Below the pieces are notes generated by a model. It saw nothing but the letters and a program-made list of their open reading frames with translations, had not been told where the DNA came from and ran no database searches. Source: Candidatus Omnitrophota bacterium (GTDB lineage Bacteria > Omnitrophota > Omnitrophia > Omnitrophales > Aquincolibacteriaceae). From it: DNA of 64,000 nt. The position numbers and the translations under genes are program-made. Where the stretch lies: assembly GCA_022709525.1 (NCBI GenBank), contig JAKLIQ010000001.1, forward strand, positions 338,679 through 402,678, read 5' to 3'. Below, one piece after another: positions 41,281 through 58,456 of the stretch (positions within the stretch are counted from its first letter, which is position 1; each line of letters opens with the position of its first letter).

Positions 41281-42339
41281 TTATTTGGGGGAAGGTATTC
41301 CGAGCTTCTTTTCCAGTTCCGCGACCTTTTTCCTGAGTACGCGGACATCATCCAAAGTTTCCGCGGCGCGAAGCTGGGCGCCGAACTGTTTTCTCATTTC
41401 CTGATACGGCCGGGCGGGCTGGCCGAAATAGATCTGTTTGCCAGGAACTTTCTTATTGGAAGGGAACCCCGCGCCGGCGCCGATCATCGCCCAATCGCCG
41501 ATCTCCACATGGTCGCCTAAACCGACGCTTCCGCCCATCGTGACATGAGAACCGATCTTACAGCTTCCGGAGATACCGGTTTGCGCGGAGATGACCGTGT
41601 GCGGCCCGATCACGACGTTGTGGGCGATCTGGACAAGATTATCGATCTTGCAGCCTTTGCCGATCCGCGTGGAGCCGATCGCCGCACGGTCGATCGTCGA
41701 ACAGGCGCCGATCTCCACATCATCTTCGATCACGACATTCCCGATCTGCGGCAGTTTCTCATGGGCTGCGGGTGTCGCGACATAGCCGAAGCCGTCCGCC
41801 CCGATCACGGTCCCCGCATGGACGACTACATTGGTTCCAAGTTCGGAGTTCTCGTAGATCGTTACGTTCGGGTGGATCACGCAATGGGAGCCGATTTTCA
41901 CGTTTTCTCCTACGAACGCGTGCGCGCGAAGAACCGATCGGTCACCGATCACGGCATGATCACAAACCGTCACGAAAGATTCGATCGTCACGTCCTTTCC
42001 GATCTTGGCCGTTTTAGCGATCGAAGCATTTGAGGCGATCGTGCCAGGGAATTTCTTGGCGGGGAAGAGCTCGCGGAGGATCTGCGCCCAAGCCCGTTTG
42101 GGATATTCGACCTGGATCAGGACCTTGGAGGATTGTTTGATTTGTTTTGGGACGATGATACAGGCGATCTCGGAAGTTTCAAGCGACCGGAAACCTTTTT
42201 CGTCCTGAACAAAAGAAATATGGCCCTTCAGCGGATTTTCAAAATTTGTGATCCCTTCGATCACAGTCGAAGCATCGCCTACCACCGTACCGCCGATCAT
42301 TTTTGCGAACTCTTCAACGGTTTTACGCATAGGGATCAT
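41281..42339 (-). CDS. lpxD: UDP-3-O-(3-hydroxyacyl)glucosamine N-acyltransferase
   Basis: N-terminal LpxD domain ([22 protein letters not shown]...) followed by extended hexapeptide repeats. 352 aa. Confidence 0.85.
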
Positions 42340-43037
42340 TTCTCGGCCGGGGTCTTTTCAGATGTGGCGGGAGCGGGCTCAGGCGCTGGCGCCTCTTCTT
42401 CGAGCCCTTCCGTGGTTTCCTCCGCCGGTTTTGGCAGGGCGAGGTAGTCTTTCAGGTTGGCCCGTTTATTGACGTCGGCGGTCCAGACCATGAAATCCGT
42501 TTTTTGCTTTTCGATGATCTTTTCTTTTTCTTTCGGGTCCGTGACCTTATCAGCGTCGACCGGAGTAAAGCTCGCGATCTTGACGCGCAAAAGTTTTTGA
42601 ATGCGCATGAACTCCCGGAGCCCTTCCTCAAAATCGCGCGGCGACATATGGAGCGCGCGGGTCAGCCAGATCTTGTATTGTTCCTGCGTCGGATTCACAA
42701 GCCCCTGTTGCTTGAGGAGGTTCGCGATCTCATTACGGACGTCCTCATCCGAGATCTTGACGCCCTCGCGCTTCGCTTCACGGGCGTAGATAATATTCTG
42801 CCAGGTATAGCTGCGGAGCGCTTCCGGGTCTTCCAGAGGTTTTTCCGTCGGCATGAAAAGCTGGGTCGCGCTATAGAATTGATTGTATTCCTGAAAAGAA
42901 ACGGTCTTACCGAATATTTCGCCCGCAAAACGCCCTTCTTTCTTGAGAGCGCTTACGGAGTAGCCGCCCCAGAGAATAAAAGAACCGACCACGACCCAGA
43001 TGATAAGTTTGGTGTATTTTCGCAAGAACTTCAACAT
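42336..43037 (-). CDS. Membrane-anchored periplasmic chaperone-like protein (SurA-N / PpiD-N-like, no PPIase domain), upstream of lpxD
   Basis: N-terminal transmembrane anchor [16 protein letters not shown], then a helical domain, then an acidic Pro/Ala/Glu-rich tail. Its position where skp/ompH usually precedes lpxD suggests a chaperone role. Confidence 0.4.
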
Positions 43038-43092
43038 AGGACGGATAATGTAACATAGCGTCTTTAAAATAACAATCGAAGAAGCTGTGCGG

Positions 43093-43121
43093 TTGACAAG
43101 GATAGAAGGCTTTTGTATGAT
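43093..43121 (+). promoter_or_regulatory. Near-consensus sigma70 promoter TTGACA-N17-TATGAT
   Basis: ttgaca at 43093-43098, 17-nt spacer aggatagaaggcttttg, tatgat at 43116-43121. Confidence 0.5.
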
Positions 43122-43128
43122 ACCGCAA

Positions 43129-43214
43129 ATGGGACACGAAACAACCGCACTTCAACGCATTTTTAGGCACAAGAAAGCGCTTCAAGCGCCTGTTCTTGTG
43201 CCTTTTTTATTTTT
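43129..43214 (+). ncRNA. Candidate small transcript of about 85 nt defined by the upstream consensus promoter and an intrinsic terminator. Could be an sRNA or a 5' attenuator of the guaB3-like operon.
   Basis: Predicted TSS about 7 nt after the -10. GC-rich hairpin aggcacaagaaagcgc-ttcaa-gcgcctgttcttgtgcct (43166-43202) is followed by ttttttattttt. Confidence 0.35.
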
Positions 43215-43220
43215 AGTAAG

Positions 43221-43390
43221 GTCGTGACTTATGAAGCAAAGCGAATATAAGTCACATGACCGAACTAAACCCCGCACCCAGTTGCAGCCGGGTTATCTCC
43301 CGGAATATCTGGGTGCGGGGTTAAATTCCAGCCTATCATTTACGTCTCTTTGTTCCGTAAATGATGCTGTCATTTAAGGAGGAGACCGCC
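43221..43390 (+). promoter_or_regulatory. Structured leader upstream of the guaB3-like/guaA operon. Three hairpins, two of them mutually exclusive next to the RBS. Candidate riboswitch or attenuator.
   Basis: Hairpin 1: gtcgtgacttat ... ataagtcacatgac. Hairpin 2: 14-bp stem aaccccgcacccag / ctgggtgcggggtt enclosing ccggg-ttatct-cccgg. Helix 3: catttacg ... cgtaaatg, which competes with aaatga-tgctg-tcattt that abuts aaggagg. Confidence 0.4.
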
Positions 43391-44551
43391 ATGTCGGTTT
43401 TTATCGGAAAAGATCGTAAAGCACGCAGGGCTTATGGTTTTGATGAGATCGCATTAGTGCCGGGGGATATCACCATCAATCCCGAAGAGGTTGATATTAA
43501 AATGCCTTTGGGGGATATGACGCTCCCGATCCCGTTCCTGGCTTCGGCGATGGACGGTGTCGTGGATCCCAAGTTCGCGATCGCGATGGGGAAGCTGGGC
43601 GGTCTGGCCGTCCTGAACCTCGAGGGGATCTATACCCGCTACGATGATTATGAAACGATCCTTGAGGAGATCTCCAAGGCGACGCCGGAAAAGGCGACGC
43701 AGCTTGTCCAGAAGCTTTACGTCAAGCCCATCAATGAAAAACTGATCGCTAAACGCGTACGGGAGATCAAGAAAGCAAAAGTCCTTTGCGCCGTGAGCGC
43801 GATCCCGCAGCGCGCCGAACGATTCGGAAAGATCGTCGAAGAAGCGGGCGCGGATATCTTTGTGGTGCAATCCACCGTCACCACCGTGCGTCATATCGCA
43901 AAAGCCTACCAGGTCGTTGATTTCAAGAAACTCTGCAGGAAGATGAAGATCCCTGTGATCCTCGGCAATTGTGTGACTTATAAAGTCGCGCTCGAACTCG
44001 CTGAAACGGGTTGCGCGGGGCTTCTTGTCGGCATCGGACCAGGCTCCGCCTGCACGACACGCGGCGTGCTCGGGATCGGCGTTCCGCAGGTGACCGCGAT
44101 CGCGGATTGCGCCGCGGCGCGCGAGTTCTATTACAAAAAGACCGGTAAATATGTTTCTATCATTGCCGACGGCGGCATGTCCACGGGCGGGGATATCTGC
44201 AAATCCATCGCAAGCGGCGCGGACGGCGTCATGGTCGGTTCGGCGTTCGCCAGGACGAAAGAAGCCCCCGGCCGCGGATTCCATTGGGGGATGGCGACGC
44301 CGCACGCAAACTTGCCGCGCGGCACAAGAATTCACGTTGGAACCACCGGGACGCTGGAGGAGATCCTCTACGGGCCCGCGCGTCTTGACGACGGGACGCA
44401 GAACCTTGTCGGCGCGCTTCGTACTTCGATGGGAAATGTCGGTGCCAAGAATATCCGGGAGATGCAGCTGACCGAGATCGTGATCGCGCCGGCCATCAAG
44501 ACGGAAGGAAAACTCTTCCAATCCGCGCAAAAGCTCGGAATGTGTAAATAA
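43391..44551 (+). CDS. IMP dehydrogenase/GMP reductase-family protein lacking CBS domains (GuaB3-like)
   Basis: About 387 aa TIM-barrel, IMPDH-like (PIPFLASAMDGVVDPKFAIAMGKLGGLAVL...GIGPGSACTTRGVLGIGVPQVTAIADC...ADGGMSTGGDICKSIASGADGVMVGS), with no CBS pair. RBS aaggagga precedes the ATG at 43391. Genomic context with guaA. Confidence 0.75.
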   Translation: MSVFIGKDRKARRAYGFDEIALVPGDITINPEEVDIKMPLGDMTLPIPFLASAMDGVVDPKFAIAMGKLGGLAVLNLEGIYTRYDDYETILEEISKATPEKATQLVQKLYVKPINEKLIAKRVREIKKAKVLCAVSAIPQRAERFGKIVEEAGADIFVVQSTVTTVRHIAKAYQVVDFKKLCRKMKIPVILGNCVTYKVALELAETGCAGLLVGIGPGSACTTRGVLGIGVPQVTAIADCAAAREFYYKKTGKYVSIIADGGMSTGGDICKSIASGADGVMVGSAFARTKEAPGRGFHWGMATPHANLPRGTRIHVGTTGTLEEILYGPARLDDGTQNLVGALRTSMGNVGAKNIREMQLTEIVIAPAIKTEGKLFQSAQKLGMCK

Positions 44552-44628: not shown

Positions 44629-46170
44629 ATGGATCAAACCATCATTGTTCTTGATTTCGGGTCGCAGTACACGCAGCTGATCGCGCGGCGTGTGCGCGAA
44701 AACAAAGTTTTCTCCAAGGTCTATCCTTTCAGCGTGCCTTTTGACAAAGTCATGGCCGAAAAACCGAAAGGGATCATCTTTTCGGGTTCTCCGGCAAATG
44801 TCTACGGCAAAGGCGCTCCGATCCCCGATAAACGTTTTCTTCATTGCGGCGTTCCGATCCTCGGGATCTGCTACGGGATGCAGCTTCTTTCTCACAAGCT
44901 CGGCGGCCGCGTCCACAAATCCAAAAAACGCGAATATGGGTTCGCAAAACTTCACGTTTCCAAGCGCGAAAGCCCGCTTTTCCGCGGGATCCCGAAGACG
45001 ATCACTTGCTGGATGAGCCACGGGGATAAACTCGACAGGATCCCCCAAGGGTTCGAGCGGCTGGCTTATACGGAAAACGCGCCTTTCGCGGCTATGGGCG
45101 ATCCCGCGCGCGGGATCTATGCGATCCAATTCCATGCCGAGGTCGTTCATACCGAACTAGGTTCCAGGATCCTGAAGAACTTCCTGGTCGGGGTCTGCGG
45201 CTGCCGGCAGAACTGGACGCCAAAATCCTTCATCAAGGAAACCGTTAAAAAGATCCGCCAACAGGTCGGCCATGACCGCGTGGTGCTCGGGCTTTCAGGC
45301 GGCGTCGATTCCTCGGTCGCGGCCGTTTTGATCCACAAAGCCATCGGTAAGAAACTCAACTGTATTTTTGTCGATAACGGCCTGCTGCGTCTTAAAGAGG
45401 CCGATAAGGTTGAAAAAACATTCCGCGGTCATTTTAAAATGAATCTCAAAGTCGTTGATGCCGAAAAGATCTTTTTAAGCCGCTTAAAAGGCGTGATCGA
45501 TCCGGAGAAAAAACGCAAGATCATCGGCAAGACCTTCATCGATGTGTTCCAAAAAGAGGCGAACCGCTTGGGCAAGGTGCCGTTCCTCGCGCAGGGGACG
45601 CTTTATCCGGACGTGATCGAATCGGTTTCTTATTTCGGCGGCCCGACCAGCACGATCAAAAGCCATCACAACGTCGGCGGGCTCCCGAAGGATATGAAAT
45701 TCAAACTCGTCGAACCGCTTAAAGAGCTTTTTAAAGATGAGGTTCGCGCGGTAGGTTACGCGCTCGGGATCGACAAAGACATCGTGGGCCGGCAGCCGTT
45801 CCCGGGACCCGGCCTCGCGGTCCGTATTTTAGGCGAGGTCCGCAAGGACCGCTGCGATCTTCTACGCAAAGCCGACTGGATCGTGATCGATGAGATCAAA
45901 AAGGCGGGTTATTACGACAAGGTTTGGCAATCCTTCGCGGTCCTGCTTCCGATCCAAAGCGTCGGCGTGATGGGCGATGAGCGCACTTATGAGAACGCCG
46001 TCGCGGTGCGCGCCGTGACGTCTTTAGACGGCATGACCGCCGACTGGGCCAAATTGCCGCCGGAACTTTTGGGCCGCATCTCGAATCGCATCATCAACGA
46101 AGTGCGCGGCATCAACCGCGTCTGTTACGATATTTCCAGCAAACCCCCGGCTACCATTGAGTGGGAGTAA
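44629..46170 (+). CDS. guaA: GMP synthase (glutamine-hydrolysing)
   Basis: GATase1 domain (ILGICYGMQLL, catalytic Cys) plus the ATP-pyrophosphatase domain SGGVDSSVAAVL and the C-terminal dimerisation region. 513 aa. Confidence 0.92.
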   Translation: MDQTIIVLDFGSQYTQLIARRVRENKVFSKVYPFSVPFDKVMAEKPKGIIFSGSPANVYGKGAPIPDKRFLHCGVPILGICYGMQLLSHKLGGRVHKSKKREYGFAKLHVSKRESPLFRGIPKTITCWMSHGDKLDRIPQGFERLAYTENAPFAAMGDPARGIYAIQFHAEVVHTELGSRILKNFLVGVCGCRQNWTPKSFIKETVKKIRQQVGHDRVVLGLSGGVDSSVAAVLIHKAIGKKLNCIFVDNGLLRLKEADKVEKTFRGHFKMNLKVVDAEKIFLSRLKGVIDPEKKRKIIGKTFIDVFQKEANRLGKVPFLAQGTLYPDVIESVSYFGGPTSTIKSHHNVGGLPKDMKFKLVEPLKELFKDEVRAVGYALGIDKDIVGRQPFPGPGLAVRILGEVRKDRCDLLRKADWIVIDEIKKAGYYDKVWQSFAVLLPIQSVGVMGDERTYENAVAVRAVTSLDGMTADWAKLPPELLGRISNRIINEVRGINRVCYDISSKPPATIEWE

Positions 46171-57517: not shown

Positions 57518-57591
57518 GGGCCTATAGCTCAATCGGTTAGAGCAGAGGACTCATAATCCTTTGGTTGGAGGTTCGATTCCTCCTGGGCCCA
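57518..57591 (+). tRNA. tRNA with CAU anticodon (elongator tRNA-Met or tRNA-Ile2/lysidine)
   Basis: 74-nt cloverleaf GGGCCUA-UA-GCUC-AAUCGGUUA-GAGC-A-GAGGA-CUCAUAA-UCCUU-UGGUU-GGAGG-UUCGAUU-CCUCC-UGGGCCC-A. The anticodon stem lacks the three G-C pairs and the C1:A72 mismatch of initiator tRNA. CCA is not encoded. Confidence 0.85.
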
Positions 57592-57668
57592 CTCGTTTTC
57601 ATTCTTGACACTTCTTGCCGGCGAAAAGTAGACTTGTGTCGCTTAAGGTGGCCCACGGAAAGGGTTTT

Positions 57669-58054: not shown

Positions 58055-58456
58055 TTGAGAAGGTCTTCTTGGATGACCGCGCACAGATGATGAGAGCAGG
58101 ATACGACCTGTCCGACGCTGTGGGAGGAAAGTCCGAGCTTCACAGGGCATCGTAGTGGGTAACGCCCACCTTTCGGTTTCTTCGGATTCCGGAACGGATC
58201 AGAGCCACAGAGACGAGGCCTTGTCGTGAAAACGGCAGGGAGTGAAACGAGGCAATCTCTACGTGAAGAAAGGCTAAATAAGGTGAAGACCTGCCGTATG
58301 AGGCAGGGGGAACGGCCCGTTCCTACCGCGTTGCAAAATACGGACTTCACCGGGTCAGCCGACCGAGGCCTGCAGTAATGCAGGCCCTAGATAGATGGTC
58401 ATCTCCCGCCCTTAAAAGCGGGGACAGAACTCGGCTTATAGAGAAGGCCTTCTCAT
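58055..58456 (+). ncRNA. rnpB: RNase P RNA (bacterial type A) with a terminal hairpin and T-run
   Basis: Universal P4 region gGGAGGAAAGUCCGagcuucACAGGGCa...GGUAACGCC. 3' consensus cuagauagauGgucaucuCc...gACAGAACuCGGCUUAu. P1 pairs gagaaggucuuc (58057-58068) with gagaaggccuucuc (58441-58454), followed by uuuuuuu. Confidence 0.85.

Follow-up and report, generated by a model that had tools for sequence, protein, structure and literature searches.

What is the role of a strong promoter that is followed, after only some 45 nucleotides (nt), by a strong intrinsic terminator in front of an operon for guanine-nucleotide synthesis? The question is raised by a stretch of DNA from a Candidatus Omnitrophota bacterium (the window, 64,000 nt in all), in which a divergent intergenic region of 354 nt (43038-43390) holds both elements upstream of a guaB3-like gene and guaA. 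A sequence-only reading had taken them for either an independent small RNA (sRNA) or a constitutively terminating leader of the downstream operon, and had mentioned in passing a leaderless micro-open reading frame devoid of a ribosome-binding site. Comparison with related loci partly supports that interpretation. On balance, we consider it probable that guaB3-guaA has its 5' leader in this segment and that the core of the leader is a predicted leaderless upstream open reading frame (uORF). An independent sRNA is unlikely, and the micro-ORF, an afterthought of the first reading, is central: it is the best-conserved feature of the region, with an ATG at the predicted +1 in 22 of 22 leaders and a frame that is kept open.

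A promoter and start codon that stay with guaB3

The elements that define the 5' end of the leader, and the site at which its reading frames end, are:

43093-43098, plus strand: -35 hexamer, TTGACA
43116-43121, plus strand: -10 hexamer, TATGAT
43122-43128, plus strand: discriminator ACCGCAA, between the -10 hexamer and the ATG
43129-43131, plus strand: ATG at the predicted transcription start, putative leaderless start codon
43129-43227, plus strand: uORF1, 32 codons plus TGA (MGHETTALQRIFRHKKALQAPVLVPFLFLVRS), spanning the whole terminator, with its stop 11 nt past the T-run
43376-43382, plus strand: Shine-Dalgarno (SD) sequence AAGGAGG of guaB3

TTGACA-17-TATGAT matches the sigma-70 consensus at 11 of 12 positions and is the joint best such match on both strands of the window, as had been suspected from its letters; the sole other 11/12 match lies on the minus strand (360-331). 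Promoter-like matches are no commoner in the window than in shuffled sequence (3 found, 2.9 expected), so that a single match is no evidence by itself, and it is the invariance among relatives that provides the evidence. The guaB3 loci were gathered from genome and metagenome collections and by exact-protein look-up, giving 181 loci. These include 22 distinct leaders, that of the window (WIN) and 21 others, drawn from all fetched relatives that had enough upstream DNA and a GuaB3 at least about 81% identical, and about 150 fetched loci with GuaB3 below 80% identity, which served as a distant comparison set. The 22 leaders are 79-273 nt long and mostly unalignable.

Nevertheless the same design recurs in 22/22: a TTGACA-type -35 hexamer (TTGACA, TTGACT or TCGACA), a spacer of 16-18 nt, a -10 hexamer (TATGAT in 21, TAATAT in L005), 6-7 nt starting with AC, and ATGG. 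A block of 21 nt, TATGATACCGCAAATGGGACA, is identical in L002, L003 and L004, and the spacer and the sequence beyond about +40 diverge. The upstream neighbour changes from locus to locus (SurA_N-like, ComP_DUS, adh_short, a giant protein); guaB3 is nonetheless always preceded by this promoter and ATG. No other promoter matching at 9/12 positions or better lies between the terminator and guaB3. In the distant set, only L129 fits a loose promoter-ATG pattern, with unrelated sequence. When a stricter -10-to-ATGG motif was sought in the window and 1.04 Mb of fetched locus sequence, no further copy turned up on the guaB3 strand; the single opposite-strand match, in L006, was all that emerged there for a regulon of other genes sharing the motif, and that idea was dropped. 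A link to PurR was also considered, on the basis of a discriminator ACGCAAA that resembles one half of the Escherichia coli PUR box; it was rejected in view of the variable discriminator and the lack of a second half-site.

A reading frame kept open up to the guaB3 ribosome-binding site

Sigma-70 promoters start transcription about 6-7 nt past the -10 hexamer, and a 5'-terminal AUG defines a leaderless start. The ATG lies at exactly this distance in 22/22 leaders, and the mRNA is therefore predicted to begin at or within 1-2 nt of the AUG, which makes ATG 43129 the predicted transcription start. The G at +4 is also present in all 22, ATGG (+1 to +4) thus being invariant and +5 to +7 nearly so. 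No SD is possible for uORF1, because the bases upstream of its ATG are promoter. None of the 22 leaders shows structure in its first 36 nt (mean minimum free energy (MFE) -2.4 kcal/mol, mean z +0.24), a predicted property that suits ribosome loading at the 5' terminus.

In 17 of the 22 leaders, the frame set by this ATG meets no stop codon before the last 16 nt ahead of the guaB3 ATG, against 3.96 expected from shuffled leaders (Poisson-binomial P of about 9e-11). The excess holds when the two remaining frames of these leaders serve as the null (13/44 open; P about 5e-6) and, with near-duplicates collapsed, under a conservative count of lineages (P about 1e-4). An SD precedes guaB3 in 22/22 leaders, and the uORF stop ends between -16 and +29 nt relative to the guaB3 ATG in 18/22. 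Typical stop contexts are TAA-GGAGG, TGA-GGAG, TAG-AGGAG and TAA-CCGGAGG, together with a TGATG that overlaps the guaB3 start; by eye, roughly half of the relatives have the stop against or over the SD. Judged by its arrangement, this is the geometry of translationally coupled cistrons. The predicted unpaired probability of the SD ranges from 0.01 to 0.60 across leaders, and no consistent sequestering duplex appears.

The encoded peptides, in turn, vary widely. They comprise 17-85 residues, and nothing is alignable past about residue 13. A loose N-terminal pattern, MG[HQ]x[ST]xx[LIV][QT][RH][LI]F or ME[THQ]PSxxK, separates the leaders by their uORF start into an MG clade and an ME clade. A first visual impression of wobble-position variation, which would have indicated a conserved peptide, failed when the ratio of non-synonymous to synonymous changes (pN/pS) was calculated: the uORF frame gives 0.94 overall and 0.78 in the ME clade, not below the shifted frames, and we make no claim of a conserved peptide. 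Eight uORF peptides had no match in Pfam or NCBIfam. Their excess of Phe and Lys stems from T- and A-runs, and the uORFs contain no regulatory amino-acid codon tract. Codons of the kind used by classic attenuators were considered (His, z = 2.6; Gln, z = 3.8) and rejected, as they form no runs and keep no consistent position. From these comparisons, the reading frame appears to be under selection while the peptide sequence is not measurably constrained, which suggests that what matters is the passage of ribosomes along the leader and not the peptide made.

At one pair of loci, L171/L172 (475-729), a gene caller reported an 84-aa ORF that corresponds to the uORF frame extended upstream through the promoter, an illustration of how such frames can be mis-annotated.

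A terminator embedded in the reading frame

Two elements of the window leader concern the end of the short transcript:

43165-43214, plus strand: intrinsic terminator, hairpin 43165-43203 (-23.4 kcal/mol) and T-run to 43214
43160-43164, plus strand: T-run directly ahead of the hairpin (uORF nt 32-36), where RNA polymerase might pause

The hairpin begins 44 nt past the -10 hexamer on the strand of the promoter, which agrees with the terminator initially described at about 45 nt. It comprises an 11-bp lower stem, AGGCACAAGAA/TTCTTGTGCCT (43165-43175 / 43193-43203), topped by a 5-bp upper stem, and is followed by the T-run TTTTT-A-TTTTT; a simple terminator scan caught only the inner 5-bp stem. 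The predicted transcript, from 43128/9 to about 43210-43214, measures 82-87 nt, in keeping with the 85 nt first estimated. In its 87-nt form it has an MFE of -25.4 kcal/mol (z = -3.6), and none of 200 shuffles folds as well. Hairpin and T-run together occupy uORF nt 37-86 (codons 13-29), ahead of the uORF1 stop at nt 97-99.

Conservation, proposed earlier as a check for both promoter and terminator, bears out the former in all 22 leaders and the latter in 9-10 of them: strong terminators are found in WIN, L002, L004, L005, L082, L083, L166 (which has two) and L173, and by eye in L085. Every strong terminator found lies within the uORF; in L005, the uORF stop codon sits inside the hairpin loop. 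The window's subclade (WIN, L002, L082 and L166) carries its terminator at the same place, uORF nt 37-76, with compensatory changes in 5 of 12 pairs. Other lineages have terminators of unrelated sequence at uORF nt 25-59, 54-96, 90-119, 114-146 and 119-159, and these varied positions suggest repeated acquisition. The stretch that precedes the hairpin in the window, uORF nt 31-36, is T-rich in about 18/22 leaders (by eye, in an ungapped alignment). Leaders lacking a terminator (L161, L167, L175, L081, L086 and L094) are less structured than their shuffles (z +0.7 to +3.0) and G-poor, with a C/G ratio of 1.4-2.2. This rut-like composition would suit the loading of Rho, and in such leaders the uORF may act on Rho or by translational coupling only.

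Two tandem reading frames in the window

Between the terminator and the guaB3 SD, the window leader contains further elements:

43231-43377, plus strand: uORF2, 48 codons, starting 3 nt past the uORF1 stop and in frame with uORF1 (43129 and 43231 are both 1 mod 3)
43220-43261, plus strand: hairpin 2, -17.6 kcal/mol, z = -5.8, its stem holding the uORF1 stop and the uORF2 start
43268-43322, plus strand: hairpin 3, -41.1 kcal/mol, z = -7.7, without T-run; its GC-rich 14-bp stem is perfect and encloses an inner hairpin
43322-43376, plus strand: hairpin 4, -18.5 kcal/mol

The sequence TGA CTT ATG (43225-43233) is a same-frame split of what relatives carry as one long uORF. Its TGA (43225-43227) is genuine, as it is the same in four other assemblies, and the junction could be a site of termination and reinitiation. 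The uORF2 stop, TAA 43375-43377, overlaps the guaB3 SD, and the window would thus keep the rule of the family by means of two tandem cistrons, uORF1 and uORF2. Because hairpin 2 buries the uORF1 stop together with the uORF2 start, initiation of uORF2 would need a ribosome arriving from uORF1.

Hairpins 2-4 fill the approximately 160 nt from terminator to SD, and the leader as a whole is more structured than chance (z about -9). An alternative pairing of 43354-43364 with 43370-43380 would, by prediction, mask part of the guaB3 SD. These hairpins are specific to one population (L178-L181) and have no counterpart in L002, a relative with 96% GuaB3 identity and a leader of only 115 nt. Did they arise by insertion? 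A repeated or mobile element was sought and rejected, no further copy being present in the window or among the 181 loci beyond the same population. A weak promoter-like sequence within hairpin 2, GTGACT-16-TATAAG (43223-43250), fails the scan for want of the critical T at -7 and makes a poor candidate for an internal promoter of guaB3.

A model for ribosome-controlled termination

We propose that transcription from the strong sigma-70 promoter begins at AUG 43129 or no more than 1-2 nt from it, and that ribosomes would load on this 5'-terminal AUG without the help of an SD and translate along the leader. If no ribosome follows closely behind the polymerase, the hairpin would form and the transcript of about 85 nt would be released. 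Termination is expected to be the default, because a strong terminator with no RNA competitor separates the only evident promoter from guaB3-guaA. Because guaB3-guaA has no other evident promoter, the initial view of a constitutively terminating leader is unlikely to be the whole story. With a ribosome close behind, the 5' arm of the hairpin would be covered and the polymerase would read through into guaB3-guaA, following the logic of pyrBI/pyrL. The footprint would cover this arm (uORF nt 37-52) once the P site passes about codon 8, and the T-run 43160-43164 is a candidate pause that may let the ribosome catch up. Suppression of an intrinsic terminator by ribosomes near the polymerase has been described (PMC4824070; PMC5021804, citing Roland et al. 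1988). The same ribosome traffic would reach the guaB3 SD, in the window via uORF2, and leader translation would be coupled to guaB3 initiation because the stop codon overlaps the SD. Both the translation of the uORF and its suppression of termination are steps that we infer. The input signal could be the rate of leaderless initiation, that is, translational capacity, or a nucleotide-dependent pausing of the polymerase; both are candidates.

A ribosome on the uORF would be the only conserved element able to oppose the terminator. Neither an aptamer nor an RNA antiterminator is expected, because the first 36 nt are unstructured in the 22 leaders and no alternative pairing is predicted; the MFE and centroid structures show no antiterminator. 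By eye, the 5' end GGGACACGAAA resembles the left arm GGCACAAGAAA at 9/11 positions, a likeness that was not reproduced, again by eye, in L002, L082 and L166 and was put down to coincidence. Rfam, which had been suggested as a check, returned no match: a search of the whole window gave none above the gathering threshold in the region, and at E up to 10 the interval 42950-43450 yielded noise only, the best hit being Srn266 with 22.8 bits against a gathering score of 63. A tRNA and tmRNA scan found nothing in the leader region. Nor is the leader an attenuator of the trp/his type, because it has no regulatory codon tract; antiterminator and terminator do not alternate, and the terminator lies inside the ORF and not past the stop of the peptide.

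Several observations weigh against this model. No strong terminator is found in about 12 of the 22 leaders, because of which suppression of termination cannot be the universal function of the uORF. Where a terminator exists, in the window, it sits within the first 100 nt of the ORF, and the proposed pause is only a T-run; without a pause of the polymerase, the first ribosome normally comes too late for a terminator so placed (PMC4824070). The uORF of the window is interrupted by the in-frame TGA 43225-43227, and those of L005, L170 and L177 end well before the SD. Finally, in the MG clade pN/pS is 0.85 for the uORF frame and 0.76 and 0.88 for the shifted frames; since this ratio does not favour the frame, the signs of coding are only the ATG and the avoidance of stops.

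In a bolder version of the model, the leaderless uORF and its embedded terminator would sense guanine-nucleotide status by way of translation initiation, with neither aptamer nor repressor. Ribosomes starting at a 5'-terminal AUG are strongly dependent on initiation factor 2 bound to GTP, and such initiation is inhibited by (p)ppGpp. Timely arrival of a ribosome would then report the GTP/(p)ppGpp state or the translational demand for GTP and set the transcription of guaB3-guaA, and in hairpin-less relatives with unstructured, G-poor leaders the uORF would gate Rho-dependent termination. This is a speculation to which we attach little probability. If true, it would represent a purine counterpart of pyrBI attenuation, with the ribosome itself as the sensor.

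Alternative explanations

The leader might respond to no signal at all. According to this explanation, the uORF simply delivers ribosomes, providing coupling and a shield from Rho or RNases, and a leaky terminator damps the output of a very strong promoter by a fixed amount. A stop placed against the SD, as in about half of the leaders, would be expected from such a function, as would terminator-less leaders with little G (C/G up to 2.2) and less structure than shuffled sequence; and no sensing element was found in Rfam searches, codon tracts or 5' folding. However, unrelated terminators gained at six uORF positions in different lineages suggest selection for conditional termination, and all guaB3 genes have a good SD of their own, so that coupling is not needed for initiation. 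We regard mere ribosome delivery as unlikely, though it deserves to be kept in mind.

An independent, trans-acting sRNA of about 85 nt, or a dual-function sRNA derived from an attenuator like Sinorhizobium rnTrpL, would explain why the window has a full promoter and terminator unit and why L002, L082 and L166 have one equally placed; terminated attenuator RNAs can moreover work in trans (PMC6614838). It is the terminator, the 3' boundary of any such RNA, that fails the comparison: the promoter and 5' region are kept in 22/22 leaders and the terminator in only 9-10. The 5' 36 nt are unstructured, loosely conserved past ATGG and without an Rfam match. An sRNA would also leave unexplained the avoidance of stops far past the terminator, up to the guaB3 SD, and would leave guaB3-guaA promoterless. 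Thus, between the two options first offered, the operon leader stands, with a promoter that travels with guaB3 and no other good promoter in sight, and the sRNA, its terminator missing in about 12/22 leaders, appears quite improbable.

Alternatively, the first cistron could encode a small protein acting in trans, for example on GuaB3 or GuaA, the terminator being incidental or tuning stoichiometry. A conserved ATG and open frame, a weak N-terminal motif and the 84-aa gene call in L171/L172 can all be read in its favour. Against it stand a length that varies from 17 to 85 residues without alignable sequence past about residue 13, a pN/pS of about 0.8-1.0 that is not below that of other frames, the absence of any Pfam or NCBIfam match, and a Phe/Lys excess explained by T/A runs; a functional product is consequently doubtful.

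Sensing of nucleotides at the promoter itself, through AUGGGA, by reiterative transcription or by sensing of the initiating nucleoside triphosphate (as for pyrG, pyrBI, upp and Bacillus subtilis +1A/+1G), would fit the invariant ATGG at +1 to +4, the nearly invariant +5 to +7 and an operon that makes guanosine monophosphate (GMP). However, GGG occurs only in the MG clade, the other clade having GGA or GGT; the A-run before the ATG varies (CAAATG, CAATG, CAGATG), with no conserved homopolymer of at least 3; and the maintenance of a frame over 80-270 nt is left unexplained. We judge it very unlikely.

A metabolite riboswitch (for purine, phosphoribosyl pyrophosphate, ppGpp or of a new class) using the terminator as expression platform is scarcely credible: riboswitches typically do sit ahead of operons such as this one for purine nucleotides, with a terminator next to them, but only 36 nt, unstructured in 22/22, separate start and terminator, folding predicts no other partner for the terminator arms, and Rfam gives no match at E up to 10.

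Comparison with known systems

Ribosome-mediated attenuation is textbook knowledge for amino-acid operons and pyrBI. The closest resemblance of the proposed leader is to E. coli pyrBI (pyrL), with which it shares a terminator in the leader ORF, termination by default, a U-rich tract before the hairpin and a nucleotide-biosynthesis operon. The pyrBI terminator lies within a 135-bp leader ORF, whereas those of classic amino-acid attenuators lie more than 20 nt past the leader stop (PMC4824070), and UTP-sensitive pausing sets a tight coupling of ribosome and polymerase that blocks the hairpin (PMC4824070; PMC5021804). The differences are equally clear. pyrL has an SD and a 5' untranslated region, whereas here the AUG is at the predicted +1; UTP is sensed there, and the pathway here is that of guanine nucleotides; and the ORF described here runs on to the SD of the structural gene, with a terminator in about 45% of relatives and no sequence similarity to pyrBI.

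In mycobacteria, polycysteine leaderless short ORFs (LL-sORFs) sense Cys-tRNA through consecutive Cys codons and unmask a sequestered SD (Canestrari et al., bioRxiv 10.1101/834739). With the uORF as predicted here they would share a 5'-terminal AUG without SD, a place as first cistron of a biosynthetic operon, action in cis via ribosome position and a lack of annotation. Unlike them, the Omnitrophota uORF has no codon tract, embeds a terminator and precedes a different pathway. In Deinococcus deserti, a leader peptide of amino-acid operons is translated from the 5'-terminal AUG of an mRNA that has a leader in other respects, and is predicted to control attenuation (PMC4007540), and leader peptides precede trpE, leuA, ilvB and aroF in Corynebacterium glutamicum (PMC3890552). 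These leaders are of the trp type, with regulatory codons, a terminator past the peptide stop and alternative hairpins, none of which is present here. In Sinorhizobium meliloti, the terminated leader rnTrpL/peTrpL is a discrete sRNA that also encodes a peptide (PMC6614838, PMC7298713), so that "leader" and "sRNA" are not mutually exclusive; unlike there, the terminator, and hence a discrete RNA, is not conserved across the clade studied here. Our literature search found no described control of guaB or guaA by a leader peptide or leaderless uORF. What would be new, as we found nothing like it described, is the combination of pyrBI-like logic with a leaderless start ahead of guanine-nucleotide genes in Omnitrophota.

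Genomic context and other guaB3 leaders

The intergenic region is flanked by the following genes:

42336-43037, minus strand: gene for a SurA_N-domain protein, left flank of the intergenic region
43391-44551, plus strand: guaB3-like gene of the inosine monophosphate (IMP) dehydrogenase family, 386 aa, without CBS domain, first gene of the operon
44629-46170, plus strand: guaA, GMP synthase, 513 aa, after the guaB3-like gene

The next gene on the plus strand after guaA is dnaE. As the flanking genes diverge, the terminator 43165-43214 closes no upstream gene; transcription from the promoter at 43093-43121 runs toward guaB3-guaA. Homologues of the guaB3-like gene bear the NCBI name "GuaB3 family IMP dehydrogenase-related protein" and all come from metagenome-assembled genomes of Candidatus Omnitrophota. 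The 354-nt sequence recurs without change in four other assemblies (the same population, L178-L181), which come from different samples, and is therefore not an assembly artefact.

Other loci show further arrangements. Five loci with GuaB3 of 78-80% identity (L006, L007, L087, L088 and L089) carry another conserved block, TTTCGTTTGACTTTT..GATAATCCG..ACTTAACCTTCC, about 60-130 nt upstream of guaB3, together with an apparent GTG start and no leaderless ATG, and constitute a second, distinct type of guaB3 leader. In L084, a tandem duplication of about 58 nt with a TTGACA motif (CGCCGGAGGCCCAACGTCTCCGGCAGGCTTTCGGGATTTTGACAATCCCGTATTCGCA, 2 copies) lies about 250-420 nt upstream of guaB3. In L008 and L090, which are more distant relatives, long imperfect palindromes of short AGCT-rich units surround the groEL terminator, between groEL and guaB3. 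Elsewhere on the plus strand of the window, tRNA-Met(CAT) (57518-57592) and a class A RNase P RNA (58061-58454, 184.8 bits) lie about 470 nt apart.

Concluding remarks

Small ORFs of this kind are usually missed by gene callers, and a terminator such as the one described here is not to be taken as the boundary of an operon. If the proposed model is true, the 22 leaders represent natural variants, with or without a terminator and with varied uORF ends, that would make ribosome-polymerase coupling testable in reporters. Leaderless translation would then be used for regulation in cis outside Actinobacteria and Deinococcus, and an uncultivated phylum would possess a compact, protein-free regulatory module for the synthesis of GMP.

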